Below are positions 40,145 to 63,549 of a stretch of 64,000 nucleotides of DNA, in pieces (the stretch's first letter is position 1; every line of letters starts with the position of its first letter). The position numbers and the translations under genes are program-made. This DNA comes from a virus. The notes below the pieces were generated by a model. It saw only the letters and a list, made by a program, of their open reading frames with translations. It was not told where the DNA came from and made no database searches. The stretch lies in IMG/VR virus record IMGVR_UViG_3300023301_001182, positions 1 through 64,000 of that record; one strand, written 5' to 3'.

Positions 40145-43100
40145 CTATCCACATTTACTTGAACCACAATCTAGGCATCTTGAACACCCTTCTTCAAATA
40201 TTACATTATTACTGCCACATGAGCTACATGTAGTAGAAGATTTTGAACCATTTGGAATAAATGTTTTTAATACCTTTGCTATTGCAAAATTAAATGAGAA
40301 TAAACTACCACTAGTTTTATTTAGGTCATCTACTATATAATTAATACCTCGTCCATGTCTTAATGAACCTGATATTAATCTAGTAATTATTTCTTGCTCT
40401 TCGTTCATTTTACCAGTAATAATACGATGTCTACTATTATCACCTTCTCCAAGAAATACATAATTACCACTACCTTCTTTTAATATAGAACCTTTACCTA
40501 CTTTAGTGCCACCTAAATAAGCAAAGACTTCATAAGGTTTATCATCCATTAATCCAACAAATACACTATACTTTTTATCACCAGCAGCAGTAATAAACGC
40601 TTCACCTGTTACTTCTTTAGGGCGTTTTATACTATTATTAGTTGAAAATGTATCATTTTTAGAATTATCAGTTATTAGAACTCCACTTCTAGAACCATCT
40701 CTGTAAACAGTGATTCCTTTAGTTCCTTTTTCCCAAGCCATTTTATAGATTTGAGAAACAGTTTCTTCTGATATATCTTTTGGTAAATTTATTGTAGATG
40801 AAATACTATGTGAAATATACTTTTGAATAGTAGATTGCACATTTACTCTATCTTCCCATTTAATATCATTTGCTGTACATCCATACCAAGGAGACGTTTT
40901 AAAGAAATTATCTGTATCTATTTTTGAATACCATGATTCAAAAGATTCATTTGGATATTTATTTTTATATTTAATAAATAACCAATCTTGAAATTTAGGA
41001 TGTAATACTTGAAATTCTTGCCAAGTATCTCCCATTTCATCAGTAAAATCTACCTTAACACCTTCATTATTAGCATTAATCTTTTTTCTACGTGTATAAA
41101 ATGGTTGAAATAATGGTTCAATTCCAGATGTAGTTTGTGTCATTAAACTTACTGTACCAGTCGGAGCGCATTTGTTATGTATAAGTTCTTTATCTTATAC
41201 TCTCCTCTTTTCAAAGGAGTATCGGACTATATCATCATCCTTAGTAGGATGCTGGATTTTCGTGGGAGAGATTATTGTTAGGCTCACTCTCCTAGTCTCT
41301 GAACCTTCTAAACTCTTTTAACCTAAGTTTAGCTTGGCTGCTGATTAACATGTTTTACCACATTATTACAAAATTGTATAAATTCTTTGTTATTTAAAAT
41401 GTTTTTCATAATATTAACTTTTTTATCTAACCATTGAATATTACCTTCAATATAACCTTTAGAAGAGTCTATTCTATCTAATGATGCATTAAATATATTA
41501 TAATTAATATTTCTATTTCCATTTTTAATATTTGTTATTGGTATTGTTTTATCTTCTGGTCTTAATATAATTTTTTTACCAGATAATGCACATTTATTAT
41601 TTTGTTTATTAAATATATTCCATGCGTAATCTAAAGATATATCAAAAACTATATTTCTTCTTTTAGCACTATATTTATAATGATTAAATAACATCTTAGA
41701 TAAATCACCTATTCCCTGATGTGAAGGAGAAAAGTCTTTTGAATGCATTTTATTTAATTTAATATTATTTAAATATTTTTCTTTATTAGAACATACTTTA
41801 CATTGTCCTACTTGATTTGATTTTAATATATCAGCCCTAATAAATTTTTCATTTCCACATTTACATTTAACTAACCAATAAGACTTTCTGTCTTTTGTAG
41901 TAGCTATATTAGTAGAAATTACTGTATAATTTTTAAATATTTTACCAATAACTGGGATTTCTTTTTTATGTGCCCCACACACAAGAATAAATTTATTATT
42001 TTTCATAAGTGTACCGTTTGGTGCAAATATACGAAAAATAAGTTTAATTACCAAACATTTTAGTAATTATTTTATAATAATTTTTGTGATAAAATTTAGC
42101 TTTCCAGCAATTTATCCAATTTTTCAAAGTATATTACTATACTAAGCCGCCATTGACGGTGCTCCATGATACATTTCTACGTCCAAAAGTCATCATCCTA
42201 AAAGCTTGTTTAGGAAATTCACTTAATATAAAATTATAAAAATCATTACCACCTTTATCTTCATATGAACCACCTTCATTTGGATACTCTAACTTGTTAT
42301 CCCATCCTTCAAATGTTCCTCTTAAAATAGCTAGGTCGATAGTACAATCTAGCTCAGATTCCATTTTAGTGTACATTATAGAGTCTATAATCTTATTTGC
42401 TTCCTCTGAACCATACTTTAAACCTAATGCTGCTAGAACGTCTCCTAGAGCTGTAAAACCTAAACCAGTTCTTCTACTTGATAAAGCAGTTAATCTTATT
42501 TTCTTCCATAATGCCATTTCTGTAAACTTCAGCATCATTGGTTCTGGGTCCATTTCAATCTTTGCAATGATTCTATCAATATGTTCAATGTCTAAATCAA
42601 TAAGATTATCACTAAGTCTCATTGCTTCATAGTTGATTTCATAAAAATCATCAAGATTAAATTGTGCCTCTTTAGTAAATGGTTTCTCTACAAAGTTATA
42701 CAAGTTCACTGCTATTAATCTACATGCGTCATAAGGTTGCATTCCTATTTCACTGCATGGATTTGTAGTAACTTGTTTAAATTGTGGATAAACTCCATCT
42801 GGACTGTAATTAACCATCTTATCCCAGTACATAAGTCCTGGTTCTGCTACACTATGTGCAGATTTAATGATTTCATCCCAATATTCCTTAGCTTTAATCT
42901 TTTTAATATATACAGAATTACCTGTATCTCCATCATAAACACTATATGATGTATTATATTTAAATGAGTCCCATCTTGGTTGCTTACTGGCTTCTTCTGT
43001 AGTAGCCCAATAAGCATTATCAATATTAACAGTTGTAGGAAATCTTAAAATATAATCTTCATCAGCTTCTACAGCTTTCATAAACTCATCATTAAGTTTA

Positions 43101-43759
43101 ATAGAGATATTAGCACCTGTTACTTGTGACAAATCTCTTTTCATCTTAATAAAGTCCATAATATCAGGATGTCTTACATCCATTGATATCATAAGAGCTC
43201 CTCTTCTACCATTCTGTGCAACTTCTCTAGTAGTATTACTAAATCTATGCATAAATGATACAGCTCCTGTAGAAGTCTTTGCAGCATTACTAGTTGGAGC
43301 CATATTAGGACGAAGTGTAGATATATCAATACCTACACCACCTCTTCTTTTTTCTAACTGTGCAATCTCCTCATCTTTTTGAAATATTCCTCCATATGAA
43401 TCTTCAGGTTGACCTACAACAAAACAGTTGGAAAGACTGCCTATTGATGAACTACCTAATTGAGACATTATTGAACCTTGAGGTACTATATACTTAAAAT
43501 CTTTAAATAGATTATAAATTATACCTTCAATATGTTCTTCTTTAAAGTCTCTATTTACTCCATATTCTGATAAAAATTCTATATTCTTGGAACTTTCTTC
43601 ACTTTTGTTTTTTAATTCAATCCTAGCAAATTCTTTTGCTAATCTTTTGTGCATATCATCAGGAGTTTTCTCTCCTTGTAAAGCGTATTTATCTAACCAC
43701 ACTTGAGCAGCTAAATCATCACCTTTAAAATACTCTAATAATTCATCATTCATCTTCAT
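40145..43759 (-). CDS. nrdJ: Class II (AdoCbl) ribonucleotide reductase, spliced: exon 1 43759-42156, exon 2 41168-40145 (~875 aa)
   Basis: SNCF, RRGGVG, GRRGA, TNPCSE, RRTGLG. The spliced junction gives RNVSWSTV-APTGTVS..TSGIEP. C-terminal Zn ribbon CSSC..EEGC..C..CG.SKCG. Confidence 0.92.
41329..42006 (-). CDS. Intron-encoded HNH-like homing endonuclease
   Basis: YWLVKCKCG, CALSG and ASLDRIDSSKGYIEGNIQW..N.MK motifs. Likely ATG at 42006, downstream of its own promoter; the C-terminus overlaps the intron Q element. Confidence 0.85.
   Translation of the reverse strand: MKNNKFILVCGAHKKEIPVIGKIFKNYTVISTNIATTKDRKSYWLVKCKCGNEKFIRADILKSNQVGQCKVCSNKEKYLNNIKLNKMHSKDFSPSHQGIGDLSKMLFNHYKYSAKRRNIVFDISLDYAWNIFNKQNNKCALSGKKIILRPEDKTIPITNIKNGNRNINYNIFNASLDRIDSSKGYIEGNIQWLDKKVNIMKNILNNKEFIQFCNNVVKHVNQQPS
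42024..42055 (-). promoter_or_regulatory. Intron-internal Bacteroidota-type promoter for the HNH gene
   Basis: - strand TTTG-N20-TATATTTG. Confidence 0.75.
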
Positions 43760-58227: not shown

Positions 58228-61200
58228 TTACCTTCCTGTTGTAGACTCAATGAAATTATAAACCTCTTTTATGTTAGCATTATCATAAGGTAAAGGTAGT
58301 TCTCTAAAAAAGTTTACAGCTCCATCAAAGAATAGTGGACAAACTGTGCCACCACCACCACTTCTACCACCAAGTATTTCTAAAAACCTTATATTATCTC
58401 TAAAAAAGGTTATATCATATCCTTGGTACTCTCTTATCTCGTGTCTAAACGGACTAAATAGTCCTATTATAACATTAGCATCCCGTTGAGTTAATTTGCA
58501 ATCGCCAAGACCATCTAATGAAGGTTTTAATCGACCTACCTTCATATTCTCGACTGATTCTTGTGCACTTGCTTGTTGTTGAATAACAACTGGAATGTAG
58601 TTATATTTATTCCTGAGTCTTAAAAGATAATCTGAAGACAATTTAACAATAGAAGCATGTAAGCTCATTTTGTGTCCATTTTCTTCTTCTGTAGAAATTA
58701 AACCTACATGGTCAATAAAGACCATAACATACTCTTCTGGATCATTAGGTTCATAATAATCATCAATCTCTGTTAATGTACCTTTGATATTGATAGTTTT
58801 TTTGTACTGTGTCCCATTGGCTTGTGCATAGGAACGGACAAATTTATAAATACCTGTAGGATTTCTAATATCATCAATGAACTCTACTATTTCTTCAATC
58901 TTCTTGAAATATGGTTCATATTTTGCTATTAACTCTAAAATTTTAATATCTAATATTTTATCTGCTTTAGTACTTCTAAGGTCAGTAGGAGGAATTCTTA
59001 CCCCTTCTTTAACATATATAATGTTAGAGAATGCTGATAACATTTTCTCCTCCTTAGACATCTCTAAAGTAAAATAAAATATCTTCAATCTAATGTTTAA
59101 AGATTTATCAATTACTTGTTGAATAGTATTATACAAAAATAGCCAATCAGCTATTTGAGTTTTCAATTTTGTTATTTCTAACGATTACTAAAATATTTCT
59201 TATTTTCAAAAAATTTTTTAAGTTCTATACCAAATTCATCAACTCCTCTACGTGGAGCATATAAACGCCAGTAACTTCCTGTGTAATTAGTAGTAGAATC
59301 TCTAACTCTATATACTTGTTTGTTTATATCATTACAAAACATACCAACTAAATTATCAAGTGACATTACAGTATTAAAAAACTCTTCATATGTGGCTTTA
59401 GGATAATAATTTAAACAGATCCTGTATAAATCTCCCATAGATCTATTGCAATCCTTTCCACATTGTTTTCTGTTACTTTTAAGATGATATGTTTTATTAC
59501 TGTATATATATCTTGATAATAATAATCTTACAAAATTCTTAAAAACTTTAGAATAAATTTTATGTTTTGTAATGCCAGCTTTTGAAAGGTATAATATTCC
59601 TCTTCCTCTTAATTTTATTTCTATTTTATTAAATTTTTGTTTCATATTTTAGAAATTTAGAAAGTTAAGTCATTTCTACTTAACTCTATAATTTAATATC
59701 AATTTTTAATGAATCAAATAGTTTATCAATATAAGCAGCATCATATTTAGTATCCTTTGTACTTCTACCATAGTTAAATGTAACAGAATTTACATGACCT
59801 GGTATAATTTTACTAGCCCATATAGATATAGATGGCTTTTGACATTTCTCATAAAAGCTATAAAATATTACTTTATTAATACCACCACATACTCTTGCTC
59901 TGAATTTAGTTTCATATAAAGCTTGTAATACCATCTTTTCAGTTGCTCCTTTTTGTTTATAATATTTAAACAAATCATCAAAGCTTCTTCTATCATAGAT
60001 CCCTTTGTCTTTTTTAAATAGAGTACTTCTAAAATACCTCTTATGATTTACTTTATTTAATAAATCTTTTTTTAACTCCTTTAAATTCATCTTTAATTAA
60101 TTTTTATTTTTATAGTTCGGACTATCTCATCAACCTATCTATGTATTACACATTTACAGTCATAATCATGATGTCCTTTTAATGCATCATTATAACATTC
60201 TGTACAACATTGTATACCTTCTGTTATAATTGTTGCAATATTATCACAATCTGTACATAGTATAGGTTGCCCATTGTTAGTCTCTACGTCCTTTTGAATT
60301 TTTGATATTGTATTATCTATAGTTGATTGAAATCTATCATCACAACTATATCCAGCTTTATAATAAGCTAAACCTTTCATAATATTTTCAATATTTCTTT
60401 TATTCAACTGTGACACGGGATTGCCTTCTTTTTTTTCAGTTTCTACACCGTTTTGTAAAGCAAGTCTAACTCCTACTGAAACTCCTAGTTTATAATCATC
60501 CCACCATTTAGGACTTCCTAAAAATTTAGTTAATCGTTTTACTTCTTTCTCAAGTGATAGCATAGGATTGCTTTCTGTTTTTTCCATTATAAATCATCTC
60601 TAGTTAAGTTCTTAATATACATCTGTAAATCTCCATTAGGATAACCTACCCTTCTTGCAAAGGTATGTTTGTATTCAAATCCTAATGTTTTTAGATTGGA
60701 TCTTAATAAGTGCTCATTTGGAGATACTATTACAAAGACAGCTGTCTGGCCTCTACCATATGTATAATCTACTTCTTTATTAATAAGCATTTCCATAGTA
60801 AGCCGTTTTAACTTAGCTTTAAATTCATCTAAAGTTGTGTCATCTCCTACATTATTTAATTGACATAATGCACAGCATGCTGTTGTTGTTTTTTCCATTA
60901 TAATGTTTTTTTAAAAAAGGGTTTCCCCGTTAGCTAATTATTTTTAACAAATACTTTTTTAACCAAGACTTAGAAGTAAATTCTCCAAGTTTAATTAATT
61001 GTTCAATTGTTAAAATTCCTTTTTTCTTTCTTTTTAATATTATTTCTTTTGCTATTCCATCTTGTTTAAATCTTGCAACATAGCCATCTCTATTTCTGAT
61101 TTGATATTTAGTAAAATATGTTGCAAAATATTGGAAGCCATAACCATAACCTGTTGGTATTGCTACACAAGATATTAATATAAAATATTTTGCTAAATTT

Positions 61201-62938
61201 TCAACATATAATTTGGATGTTACATTTATTGAAAATGTTACTTTCTGAGCTGCATGTAATACTTTAGCCACTCTTTCTATAGCTTTAGGTGTACACAGTG
61301 ATGCAAAACTTGATACTTGATCTAAGTAACAATGTTTACAATTACCAATTGCGTCTTGGTAAAAAATTGTACTATAATCTGAAAGATACACTTTATATAC
61401 ATCTGTGTCACACATATTTGGAATACAGTCTTCTAGTCTTATATTTATCATTTTTTCTTAATTAACCCCCATTTCTGGGATTCTGAGTTCAATTACATAT
61501 TACTATGCAAAGGGGCAAAATCTACCTACTTTCGTTTATATTCCACATAAGACGTAACTCTTATATGCGTTTATGATAAATAGTATATATGGTAGGTCTA
61601 TCCTCAATAACTTTTAAGATATTGGTTATTTTCCACGAGTACTGTACCTGCTTATACTTCTTAATACTATTTACTTTAACTGCTATATATTTCTATATAG
61701 ACTGGACTATATCTTCATCTACTTGAGATGGCTTCCATTTCCAATACCATTAACTTGTATTGTACGTGCTCTATTGCACTAGTCTCTGAACGTTACTATT
61801 TCTAGTCTTCGCTGCTGATTGTCTTATATAAAAAAGACACTATATTAGTGTCTTAATTATACTTAGAGTTTCCAGCAATTAAAAAGCTAATCATCTAGAT
61901 GTCACCATCTAGCGTAGCAATTAAATTGTTATTAATAAATATTGTTTTTTAAATTTTTGTTGTACTTTTATTGCATAACTTATACTAGGTCTGTGTGTTT
62001 TAAAATATTCAGCACATTCTTTTAAAGAATTAAATTCCATAATTAATTCTCTTGTACTATAATCTAATACTTGGACTTTCTTATATAAATATTCCATATT
62101 TTTAGTATCTTTTTTATAAGGAGATAATATTTCTTTATAATCATATGACCATAAATAATTACCTGCTTTTTTATAAGTACCATTAATATATCTACATATA
62201 GATGATTTAGAAATATCACACTCAGATGAAGCTTCATTAAGGCTATTATATTTACATATATATTCTCCATTTAAAGAGTACTTATATATAACTTTAGTAG
62301 CTAATATTATTTCACCTATTTTAATTTTGTATTTCCTTGTATTAGATTGTTTAAGTCTAGACTCTTTAGGAAGGATATTTCTATCTACTTCTAAAGTAAT
62401 ATTATATAAAGGTTTTAATATATCTATATAAAATTGTTCTCTACTTATTAACTTATTTTCTTCACATTTTTCTAATATATAAAAATTAAAGTCATTCTCT
62501 GTATTATTATTCCAAGAATTTTGTAATAATATATTACAATGCTTTAATTTTTTTAATGTATAAAAATGATTATATAACCTAGTTCTAATGTTTTTAGAAC
62601 TACCTATATATTGTTTACCATTTTTAATATTTATTATGCAGTAAATACCACTGCAGTTATAATCTTTTGTTATTTTCTTCATAATTTATATATTTATACA
62701 AATATACGAAATTAAATTCAATAATCCTAATTTATAACTGCTAATTTTATAACTTTATTTATTATAACTAATTACTATTCGCTGTAATTAAATAATATTT
62801 ACCTTGCTCAATGCCAGGTAATTCATTTTCAAACCGAGGTAACCCCCATGGTATACAATTAATTTGCCCATTAAGTAACCTCTGTCTCTTTTCTATGATA
62901 TTGTCATAGACTCTTGTATATAAACTTGTTTCTTTCAT
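58228..62938 (-). CDS. DnaB-like replicative helicase, spliced from three exons (62938-62774, 61532-61524, 59163-58228; ~369 aa)
   Basis: Spliced product reads IPWGLPRF..GIEQGKYYLITANS|KVG|KTQIAD..YFTLEMS..FIDHVGL..QQQ..DAN..GLF. Exons of 165, 9 and 936 nt keep the frame. Confidence 0.88.
59178..59645 (-). CDS. Intron-borne basic hypothetical protein (paralog of 59686-60090)
   Basis: RSMGDLY..Y.KAT..FCNDINKQVY motif. Confidence 0.6.
   Translation of the reverse strand: MKQKFNKIEIKLRGRGILYLSKAGITKHKIYSKVFKNFVRLLLSRYIYSNKTYHLKSNRKQCGKDCNRSMGDLYRICLNYYPKATYEEFFNTVMSLDNLVGMFCNDINKQVYRVRDSTTNYTGSYWRLYAPRRGVDEFGIELKKFFENKKYFSNR
59686..60090 (-). CDS. Intron-borne basic hypothetical protein
   Basis: RRSFDDLF..Y..GAT..VCGGINKVIF motif. 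Confidence 0.6.
   Translation of the reverse strand: MNLKELKKDLLNKVNHKRYFRSTLFKKDKGIYDRRSFDDLFKYYKQKGATEKMVLQALYETKFRARVCGGINKVIFYSFYEKCQKPSISIWASKIIPGHVNSVTFNYGRSTKDTKYDAAYIDKLFDSLKIDIKL
60135..60587 (-). CDS. Intron-borne ORF overlapping the ribozyme core; C-terminal Cys-rich (CxxC..CxxC) region
   Basis: EGNPV is encoded by the Q element and DVET by the R element; CTDC..CCTEC lies in the P8 loop. Confidence 0.5.
   Translation of the reverse strand: MEKTESNPMLSLEKEVKRLTKFLGSPKWWDDYKLGVSVGVRLALQNGVETEKKEGNPVSQLNKRNIENIMKGLAYYKAGYSCDDRFQSTIDNTISKIQKDVETNNGQPILCTDCDNIATIITEGIQCCTECYNDALKGHHDYDCKCVIHR
60587..60898 (-). CDS. Intron-borne small protein, possibly GNAT-like fold
   Basis: ACCALCQL; AVFVIVSPNE....LKTLGF resembles the GNAT C-terminal motif. 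Confidence 0.5.
   Translation of the reverse strand: MEKTTTACCALCQLNNVGDDTTLDEFKAKLKRLTMEMLINKEVDYTYGRGQTAVFVIVSPNEHLLRSNLKTLGFEYKHTFARRVGYPNGDLQMYIKNLTRDDL
60930..61451 (-). CDS. Intron-borne hypothetical protein
   Basis: 173 aa; GNCKHCYL; the stop TAA abuts the intron P4 element (AGC TAA CGGGGAA). Confidence 0.55.
   Translation of the reverse strand: MINIRLEDCIPNMCDTDVYKVYLSDYSTIFYQDAIGNCKHCYLDQVSSFASLCTPKAIERVAKVLHAAQKVTFSINVTSKLYVENLAKYFILISCVAIPTGYGYGFQYFATYFTKYQIRNRDGYVARFKQDGIAKEIILKRKKKGILTIEQLIKLGEFTSKSWLKKYLLKIIS
61524..61532 (-). other. 9-nt micro-exon (AAA GTA GGT = K-V-G) of the helicase Walker A motif
   Basis: Preceded by the terminal G of intron 1 (61533), ends in U, and supplies exactly the residues missing between ANS and KT. 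Confidence 0.85.
61921..62682 (-). CDS. Intron-encoded GIY-YIG homing endonuclease with NUMOD1-like repeats
   Basis: SGIYCI.N..NGKQYIGSS....R, REQFYID, YN; C-terminal Y.SL.EA / FNSLKECAEYF repeats. Confidence 0.9.
   Translation of the reverse strand: MKKITKDYNCSGIYCIINIKNGKQYIGSSKNIRTRLYNHFYTLKKLKHCNILLQNSWNNNTENDFNFYILEKCEENKLISREQFYIDILKPLYNITLEVDRNILPKESRLKQSNTRKYKIKIGEIILATKVIYKYSLNGEYICKYNSLNEASSECDISKSSICRYINGTYKKAGNYLWSYDYKEILSPYKKDTKNMEYLYKKVQVLDYSTRELIMEFNSLKECAEYFKTHRPSISYAIKVQQKFKKQYLLITI
62699..62730 (-). promoter_or_regulatory. Intron-internal Bacteroidota-type promoter for the GIY-YIG gene
   Basis: - strand TTAG-N20-TATATTTG. Confidence 0.75.
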
Positions 62939-62940
62939 AT

Positions 62941-63549
62941 TTAATTTAATTTTGAAGTCCATTCATCTCTACTAGGTAATCCTATCTCCTCTATATAAGC
63001 AGATAATCTGGATGACTCTTCACGATTGTTCTCTTGTTTAAATATAAAATAATCAGCACGTTGTAAGAATCTATAATCTCCATGTAAGCTGTCAATATAA
63101 ATATCAACTGCTTTTAGGATATCATCGAATGTATATTTAGAGTTTTCTTTCATCCATCTTGTAAGTTTAATTTCACATGACTTTGGACTACCCATAGAAC
63201 CAGCTTTTAACCCTTTCCATTTGTCTCTAAATAATTCAATTCTACCATCAATCTCTTGATTAATAGTTCTTTGTGATCTTTTAGTAGTCTTCTTAGAAGG
63301 CTCTAAAGCATCAGGTATTTCTACTGTTAAAAACTCTAATAGTTCTACAGATTTCTCCCTTAATATATATTTTGTCTTTTCTTCATCTGTTATAATTTTT
63401 ATTAGTTTTTCTCTTTGTAATTTTTGTAAGTCTATATTAGCTATATTAACTTCTTTCTCTTCAAATAAGTTATATAGAAATAAGAGATCTTCTACAGAAA
63501 TATTGAAATCATTTAGTACAGTAAAATTTAGTACTAAGTTTTTTCTCAT
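62941..63549 (-). CDS. Hypothetical protein, possible replication initiator/helicase loader
   Basis: Directly upstream of the helicase; winged-helix-like N-terminus and helical C-terminal domain (F...W..; FLQRADYFIFK). Confidence 0.4.
   Translation of the reverse strand: MRKNLVLNFTVLNDFNISVEDLLFLYNLFEEKEVNIANIDLQKLQREKLIKIITDEEKTKYILREKSVELLEFLTVEIPDALEPSKKTTKRSQRTINQEIDGRIELFRDKWKGLKAGSMGSPKSCEIKLTRWMKENSKYTFDDILKAVDIYIDSLHGDYRFLQRADYFIFKQENNREESSRLSAYIEEIGLPSRDEWTSKLN

Follow-up and report, generated by a model that had tools for sequence, protein, structure and literature searches.

A probable group I intron with five passenger reading frames in the Walker A codons of a marine crAss-like phage helicase

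Why a replicative helicase gene should be broken within the codons of its Walker A motif, and what the five open reading frames (ORFs) lodged in the break might be, are the questions raised by the stretch of DNA analysed here (the window), the first 64,000 nucleotides (nt) of the 92-kb IMG/VR virus record IMGVR_UViG_3300023301_001182. The minus strand of the window encodes the DnaB-like replicative helicase of a marine crAss-like phage, with its coding sequence in three pieces; the nearest cultured relative is Cellulophaga phage phi14:2, with 52% identity over the C-terminal part of the helicase. The textbook picture of a phage group I intron is a ribozyme that carries at most one gene, for a homing endonuclease. 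An initial annotation of the window had read positions 59164-61523 as a 2.36-kb group I intron carrying five genes that are not homing endonucleases, and we consider it likely that this stretch is one genuine group I intron and that its ORFs are passenger genes rather than endonucleases. The pieces of the locus are:

62774-62962, minus strand: helicase exon 1, ending ...ITANS
61533-62773, minus strand: group I intron 1, with a GIY-YIG/NUMOD ORF (62682-61921), an R-type motif ending at 61779 and S at 61713-61704
61524-61532, minus strand: micro-exon of 9 nt, AAAGTAGGT, encoding K-V-G and supplying the 5' exon strand of P1
59164-61523, minus strand: group I intron 2, 2360 nt, inserted after the GGT of the P-loop glycine codon, with its terminal G at 59164
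58228-59163, minus strand: helicase exon 3, starting KTQIADW..., first letters AAAACTCAA at 59163

Evidence that intron 2 is a removable insertion comes from helicase genes in which the site is intact. The helicase of cr108_1 reads ANSKIGKTQIAD across the site (ANSKIGKTQ, against ANS|KVG|KTQ in the window), and therefore the three window pieces rebuild the Walker A motif exactly. Used as a query against viral contigs, exon 3 retrieved 70 related loci (named L with three digits below). At 34 of them the helicase is uninterrupted and reads ...AGT AAA GTN GGT AAA ACN CAA... (ANS-KVG-KTQ), while the remaining loci carry insertions at three points within 12 nt: site A after AGT, site C after AAGGT and site B after GGT. 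Site B is used, at the identical nucleotide, by the 2.36-kb element of the window, by 13 of the loci and by phi14:2. Intron 2 begins at 61523, right after exon ...GTAGGT, and its excision restores the reading frame at a site that is uninterrupted in homologues, as is required of a group I intron. Comparison of crAss-like helicase loci, which had been proposed as a check, thus yielded both uninterrupted sites and introns at the same site, and the former, together with cr108_1, confirm the boundaries 59164 and 61523 exactly. The accompanying claim that removal of 61523-59164 completes the helicase is right as to the insertion and incomplete as to the gene: intron 1 (62773-61533) must also go. 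KVG is encoded by a 9-nt micro-exon in every tandem-intron locus, and a record-wide search found one helicase copy in the whole 92 kb.

Every site-B member starts with A(G/A)AWTTTGCCCC, followed by a hairpin with a GNRA cap; the final letter is G in all of them, and the usual 3' end is AACAAAATTG. The introns differ in length because one to six ORFs fill the peripheral loops: the shortest, in L016, has 761 nt and one ORF, and the longest, in L011, 3574 nt and six. The phi14:2 intron (L074, NC_021806.1 9000-17000) measures 2616 nt and matches the window in layout, in a phage that is viable in culture. In RefSeq, its intron ORFs g025-g028, homologues of the passenger ORFs, are entered as ordinary hypothetical genes, and exon 1 stands as a protein of its own (g024, 64 aa). 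The RefSeq start of the helicase g029 is an internal ATG that lies past the Walker A GK(T/S) codons; the intron reading corrects the annotation of this helicase and of g025-g028.

The elements assigned in intron 2 are these:

61513-61520, minus strand: internal guide, UUUU (P10, with the AAAA of the 3' exon) then GCCC (P1, with exon GGU)
61493-61510, minus strand: P2 hairpin with a GUAA loop
61484-61487, minus strand: P3 5' strand CUCA, partner UGGG at 60273-60270
61468-61479, minus strand: extra hairpin CCCA-GAAA-UGGG between P3 and P4
60925-60930, minus strand: P4 5' strand, part of the P element at 60930-60921
60414-60422, minus strand: Q element, P4 3' strand and start of P6
60277-60287, minus strand: R element, with the P7 5' strand at 60282-60278
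60262-60269, minus strand: P8 5' strand, with the 3' strand at 60138-60131, which includes the ORF150 stop codon
60119-60128, minus strand: S element, with the P7 3' strand at 60124-60120
59664-59684, minus strand: P9.1 hairpin

In each site-B member, the core comprises one P (ACGGGGAAAC), one Q (AATCCCGTG), one R (GTAGAGACTAA) and one S (GAGATAGTCC), or close variants of these, always in this order; in the window intron they lie at intron positions 594, 1102, 1237 and 1396. The distance from P to S varies from about 110 nt to about 1.7 kb across members, with L016 and L072 holding all four elements within about 110-140 nt. The same four elements at varying spacing therefore describe one core stretched by insertions into different loops. 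The guide UUUUGCCC pairs with both exons, with AAAA of the 3' exon in P10 and with GGU of the 5' exon through a U.G pair at the splice site. The ordered core, the U.G pair and the terminal G had all been claimed from the window itself; the ordered core and the terminal G recur in the related introns.

The pairings that join these elements vary in a coordinated manner. P3, which the initial annotation had been unable to assign, is formed by the 4 nt preceding a conserved GAAU and the 4 nt that follow R and CAA: it is CUCA/UGGG in the window, CUCA/UGAG in phi14:2 and L004, CUCU/GGAG in L028, UUCC/GGAA in L066 and L010, and CAUC/GAUG in L072; a placement was sought and not found in L013 and L018. 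P4 reads ACGGGG/UCCCGU, except that U-A takes the place of a G-C pair in L016 and L045, and the P5 stem (60920-60913 with 60431-60424) encloses the loop with ORF103. P6 is GCCGU/ACGGU in most members and GUC/GAC in the window, where the loss of 3 nt has left the pairing intact, as well as the reading frame that runs through it. P7 is GACUA/UAGUC, replaced by GACUG/CAGUC in L004, L011 and phi14:2 and by GACUU/AAGUC in L072, and P8 is CAACCUA/UAGGUUG with several compensatory variants. A pairing of the post-R CAACCUA with a 5' GGGGUU was also considered and ruled out, as covariation in L004 and phi14:2 favours the strand before S, i.e., P8. Over P3-P8 (30 pair positions, 375 cells), standard pairing is found in 98.9% of cells and compensatory change at 14 positions; when the 3' partner is displaced by 1-3 nt, pairing falls to 27-46%, and none of 1000 column shuffles reached the observed values.

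Folding of a loop-deleted core had been suggested as a further check, and here the core folds: a 307-nt mini-intron, in which the ORF loops were replaced by GAAA, gave -65.5 kcal/mol (z = -4.9) without constraints, in a structure that contains P2, the two extra hairpins, P4, P5, P6, P7, P8, P9, P9.1 and P9.2. P7.1/P7.2 are absent between P3' and P8 (L072 packs P7-P3'-P8-P7' into 39 nt between R and S), and therefore the intron is not of the T4-type subgroup IA2.

The five ORFs occupy the loops of this single core, apart from one that runs across it:

60930-61451, minus strand: ORF173, in the loop of the second extra hairpin, stem 61466-61459 / 60940-60933 (GUUAAUUA/UAAUUAGC)
60587-60898, minus strand: ORF103, in the P5 loop (L5)
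60135-60587, minus strand: ORF150, core-spanning; starts in L5 and crosses P5', Q, P6, R, P3' and P8
59686-60090, minus strand: ORF134, in the P9 loop (L9), stem 60115-60111 / 59690-59686
59178-59645, minus strand: ORF155, in the P9.2 loop (L9.2), stem 59663-59657 / 59181-59175 (UUUCUAA/UUAGAAA)

This agrees with the placement first proposed, in which ORF173 stood between P2 and P4: ORF173 lies between P3 and P4, ORF103 in L5, ORF150 over Q-P6-R-P8, ORF134 in L9 and ORF155 in L9.2. Coding and structural sequence meet closely: the stop codon of ORF173 adjoins P4, and the 3' strands of P8, P9 and P9.2 contain the stop codons of ORF150, ORF134 and ORF155, respectively. Relatives without ORF134 have CUAUAUGGUGACAUAUAG at that place in L9.

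The frame of ORF150 is a property of the family. Eleven introns have expanded P6 and P8, and in 10 of these the stretch from Q to S is free of stops when Q is read as Asn-Pro-Val, against 4-18 stops in the other two frames; in the compact introns L072, L016 and L045, stops occur in all three frames. The distance from Q to R is divisible by 3 in all 13 members of the window clade, L016 included, with the distant L045 (37 nt) as the exception. Conservation of the core-frame proteins falls mostly where the RNA is conserved (KDNPVPS and QNGVETN.EQP), and most have a Cys-rich tail. The window version of ORF150 opens with a degenerate duplicate of the Q-R module, in tandem with the intact one, which makes up its N-terminal third; there Q' is AAUCCUAUG (60569-60561) and R' is GUAGAAACUGA (60446-60436), and neither is able to form P4 or P7.

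Across the intron family, about ten ORF families are distributed as a mosaic over the same loops, one to six per intron, and the families of the window ORFs recur as free-standing genes in related phages. ORF173, for instance, has relatives in three other introns and free-standing ones upstream of unbroken helicases in L050, L051 and L067. A perfect 17-nt direct repeat (60576-60592 and 60887-60903, spacing 311 nt) lies over the start codons of ORF150 and ORF103 and brackets ORF103 exactly, which suggests a cassette gained by recombination at a common start context. As a pattern, the harbour for accessory genes proposed earlier therefore holds at the level of the family, where differing sets of one to six ORFs sit in the same loops and ORF families are also found free-standing.

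What these passengers encode was approached through family and fold searches. None of the five window ORFs matched Pfam, PHROGs or NCBIfam, endonuclease families included, while the same searches recovered the GIY-YIG ORF of intron 1 and a LAGLIDADG ORF of L012 as positive controls. The sole PADLOC match, ORF150 to PDC-M02B at 17.8 bits, was set aside as weak. ORF155 and ORF134 are paralogues (hhalign probability 91%, E 9e-7). The ORF155 family profile reached 1805 clusters (50% identity level), whose proteins are typically about 140 aa long, and 0 of 69 clusters scanned had a Pfam or PHROG match; among the best 150 matches nearly all are single-domain proteins of 120-200 aa, with a few tandem doubles and no added catalytic domain. 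The AlphaFold model of ORF155 (predicted local distance difference test, pLDDT, 76; predicted template-modelling score, pTM, 0.75) matched winged-helix DNA-binding domains only, with Z up to 5.8 over about 68 aligned residues. ORF155 is thus probably a winged-helix protein, judging from this model, in a large uncharacterised family, and its paralogue ORF134 would probably share the fold. The family profile found nothing among PDB sequences, and tblastn of ORF155 against cultured phages gave no match; the profile search identified phi14:2 g061, among the early genes, as a free-standing member.

In the ORF103 family, identity averages 66% and 35 columns are invariant. The ORF103 model (pLDDT 80), a small alpha/beta protein, looks like the acetyl-CoA-binding (C-terminal) half of GNAT enzymes, with Z up to 8.2, and GNATs make up nearly all of the top 50 fold matches. 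The ORF103 profile matched only designed armadillo repeats in the PDB, with no significant single stretch, and we rejected this as a composition artefact. ESM Atlas searches with ORF155 and ORF173 returned low-scoring leads only. The fold comparison envisaged for the ORFs thus gave a winged-helix-like ORF155, a GNAT-half-like ORF103 and no nuclease fold in those two models; these are fold resemblances and not functions.

The most serious alternative takes intron 2 for a mobile intron of the ordinary kind, with ORFs that are homing-endonuclease genes which escape recognition or have decayed, for instance to DNA-binding remnants. Endonuclease genes classically land in intron loops (PMC3984707); members of the ORF families are also found outside introns, several to a genome, like the T4 seg and mob genes; and the ORF155 model resembles a DNA-binding winged helix. 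Moreover, a LAGLIDADG_2 gene (E 3e-34) lies between P3' and P8 in L012 and L007, the sole introns of the family with a recognisable endonuclease. The initial claim of passengers that are not homing endonucleases is thus supported, as far as known families go, for the five window ORFs, and does not extend to all related introns. Against this explanation, no nuclease motif or family match was obtained for the five ORFs across four libraries, the ORF155 family (about 1800 clusters) shows no added catalytic domain in its best 150 matches, and ORF103 is under strong purifying selection with a GNAT-like rather than a nuclease fold. We therefore regard unrecognised or decayed endonucleases as an unlikely source of these genes.

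A dead relic, in which the ribozyme is inactive, the helicase a split pseudogene and the ORFs ordinary genes between its pieces, is far less probable still. The weak P1 of the window and a core scattered over 2.3 kb with a reading frame through it would fit such decay. However, core sequences and pairings have been kept through compensatory changes among loci whose helicases are only 43-93% identical, the exons are open and conserved with the 9-nt exon always encoding KVG, a search of the 92-kb record found no second helicase copy, and the viable phi14:2 shares the layout. A twintron or nested composite of introns inserted into each other, each with its own ORF, might be suspected from the degenerate Q'-R' module upstream of the intact one and from the three insertion sites within 12 nt, but it is scarcely credible given that 61523-59164 holds one complete P-Q-R-S set only, that the Q'-R' duplicate lacks the bases needed for P4 and P7, and that every ORF is closed by a stem of the single core.

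Several observations nevertheless weigh against a functional intron with passenger genes. P1 has only 3 bp in the window (U.G, G-C, G-C), whereas most relatives have 4; group I introns do not usually carry two hairpins between P3 and P4; the degenerate Q'-R' duplicate could cause misfolding; and the 98.9% pairing and its compensatory changes were counted on the same sequences from which the structure was derived. The fold matches are of middling strength, and the models cover ORF155 and ORF103 only, so that the ORFs may still include a novel nuclease. Finally, the Infernal check recommended at the outset was negative: cmscan with Intron_gpI of Rfam release 15 gave no match in the window at the gathering threshold or even at E up to 10, and none up to E 1 in five related loci (L004, L016, L028, L034 and L057). 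This negative carries little weight because the model also misses clear introns, namely intron 1 and that of L057, both with a GIY-YIG ORF and canonical R and S; surveys that rely on Rfam will therefore count too few introns in these phages.

Introns are concentrated in the helicase P-loop codons, which form a hot spot for insertion. Intron 1 sits 9 nt upstream of intron 2, splits exon 1 from the micro-exon and has textbook R and S; a terminator-like hairpin with a T run lies at 61834-61854 on the minus strand, between its GIY-YIG ORF and ribozyme core. The tandem layout is repeated in L005/L006, L007, L031 and L035, and the upstream intron of L005/L006 has no ORF and is about 300 nt long. Site C is used by other introns (L057:4928-6000, L073:4933-6000 and L034:4290-6000), those of L057 and L073 being about 1.07 kb with a GIY-YIG ORF as the sole gene. 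Further insertions lie within the C-terminal helicase exon at L064:3140-4213, L066:4876-6000 and L069:2111-3089, following residues about 222, 104 and 200 of window exon 3, respectively, with LAGLIDADG-like ORFs in L064 and L069. Elsewhere in the window, the ribonucleotide reductase large subunit is split (40145-43759, minus strand), its two pieces matching positions 1-342 and 396-523 of the Pfam barrel domain profile; between the pieces are a 241-aa ORF without a Pfam match (41329-42054) and group I R and S motifs (41300-41292 and 41233-41224), and the split is a probable third group I intron of the window. L028:1-52 matches the 3' end of tmRNA (30.5 bits, E 1.5e-8), under the family gathering score.

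From the arrangement of these elements, we propose how the locus may work. The replication operon would be transcribed through both introns, each of which would fold and then splice by two standard guanosine-initiated transesterifications, and loss of both would join ANS, KVG and KTQ into ANSKVGKTQ. Translation of the passenger ORFs could take place on the precursor or on the intron after excision. A ribosome moving along ORF150 would be expected to melt P4-P8, and therefore translation of ORF150 and splicing would be mutually exclusive on one RNA molecule, a competition that may be exploited for helicase regulation or simply tolerated. Passenger ORFs would be exchanged between introns by recombination. 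Intron 2 may have spread by co-conversion when the GIY-YIG enzyme of intron 1 (in relatives, the LAGLIDADG enzyme) cuts intron-less alleles; this is the simplest explanation of its spread, given that intron 2 has no recognisable endonuclease of its own. A fuller scheme, in which the loops are exchangeable slots, the ribozyme segments act as recombination arms, endonucleases of the same or the adjacent intron spread the package and ribosome traffic sets the level of helicase mRNA, is possible and is offered here tentatively.

Known systems share parts of this arrangement. The fungal mitochondrial mL2449 intron houses rps3, and so resembles intron 2 in placing a non-endonuclease gene inside a group I intron; in that case it is a single host housekeeping gene in an rRNA intron, whereas the window holds several exchangeable accessory genes. 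The T4 td, nrdB and nrdD (sunY) introns are likewise of the self-splicing type, lie in phage genes of nucleotide or DNA metabolism and carry an ORF in a peripheral loop. They also have, like intron 2, an in-frame stop shortly after the 5' splice site (PMC3984707). In contrast, they have one endonuclease ORF each together with P7.1/P7.2, while the window intron has five ORFs, none an endonuclease by the tests run, no P7.1/P7.2, and in addition two P3-P4 hairpins and a frame through the catalytic core. Endonuclease ORFs may overlap intron core sequences (Hausner, Hafez & Edgell 2014, PMC3984707, Fig. 2b), with a coding frame that runs from a loop into core helices as that of ORF150 does. Unlike those cases, the window frame crosses P5', P4', P6, P7, P3' and P8 in one sweep, is conserved in 10-11 related introns and is not recognised as an endonuclease.

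With regard to gene number, a parallel is the mitochondrial cob intron of Exserohilum turcicum, which carries five LAGLIDADG genes, in a study stating that multiple endonucleases within one intron were previously unreported (Sellés Vidal et al. 2025, PMC11835236). Both are annotated group I introns with five non-overlapping ORFs, but one resides in a fungal mitochondrion with all five ORFs LAGLIDADG, and the other in a phage with no recognised endonuclease. In collaborative homing, an intron without an endonuclease adjoins an endonuclease gene aimed at the same conserved site (PMC3984707); in the window, the presumed helper GIY-YIG ORF lies instead inside a second intron, 9 nt upstream, and the mechanism would be analogous. 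Introns of Delta and Zeta crAss-like phages were found via endonuclease domains (Yutin et al. 2021, PMC7886860) and are, like ours, group I introns in crAss-like core genes; that study describes no helicase P-loop introns with several non-endonuclease ORFs, and its detection method is blind to the window family. Neither the helicase P-loop family nor any phage group I intron that carries several non-endonuclease genes turned up in our literature searches.

What sets this intron family apart is the combination of up to six ORFs (five in the window), almost none of them endonucleases, with a conserved frame over the catalytic core, in an intron that in the window interrupts the Walker A codons of an essential helicase beside a second intron. 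If splicing occurs, introns can serve as vehicles for accessory genes, the family would offer a natural system to study the competition between translation and ribozyme folding, and intron finding based on endonuclease domains or on Rfam would be missing a whole class. The cultured phi14:2 shares the layout, and the intron family is thereby open to experimental testing.

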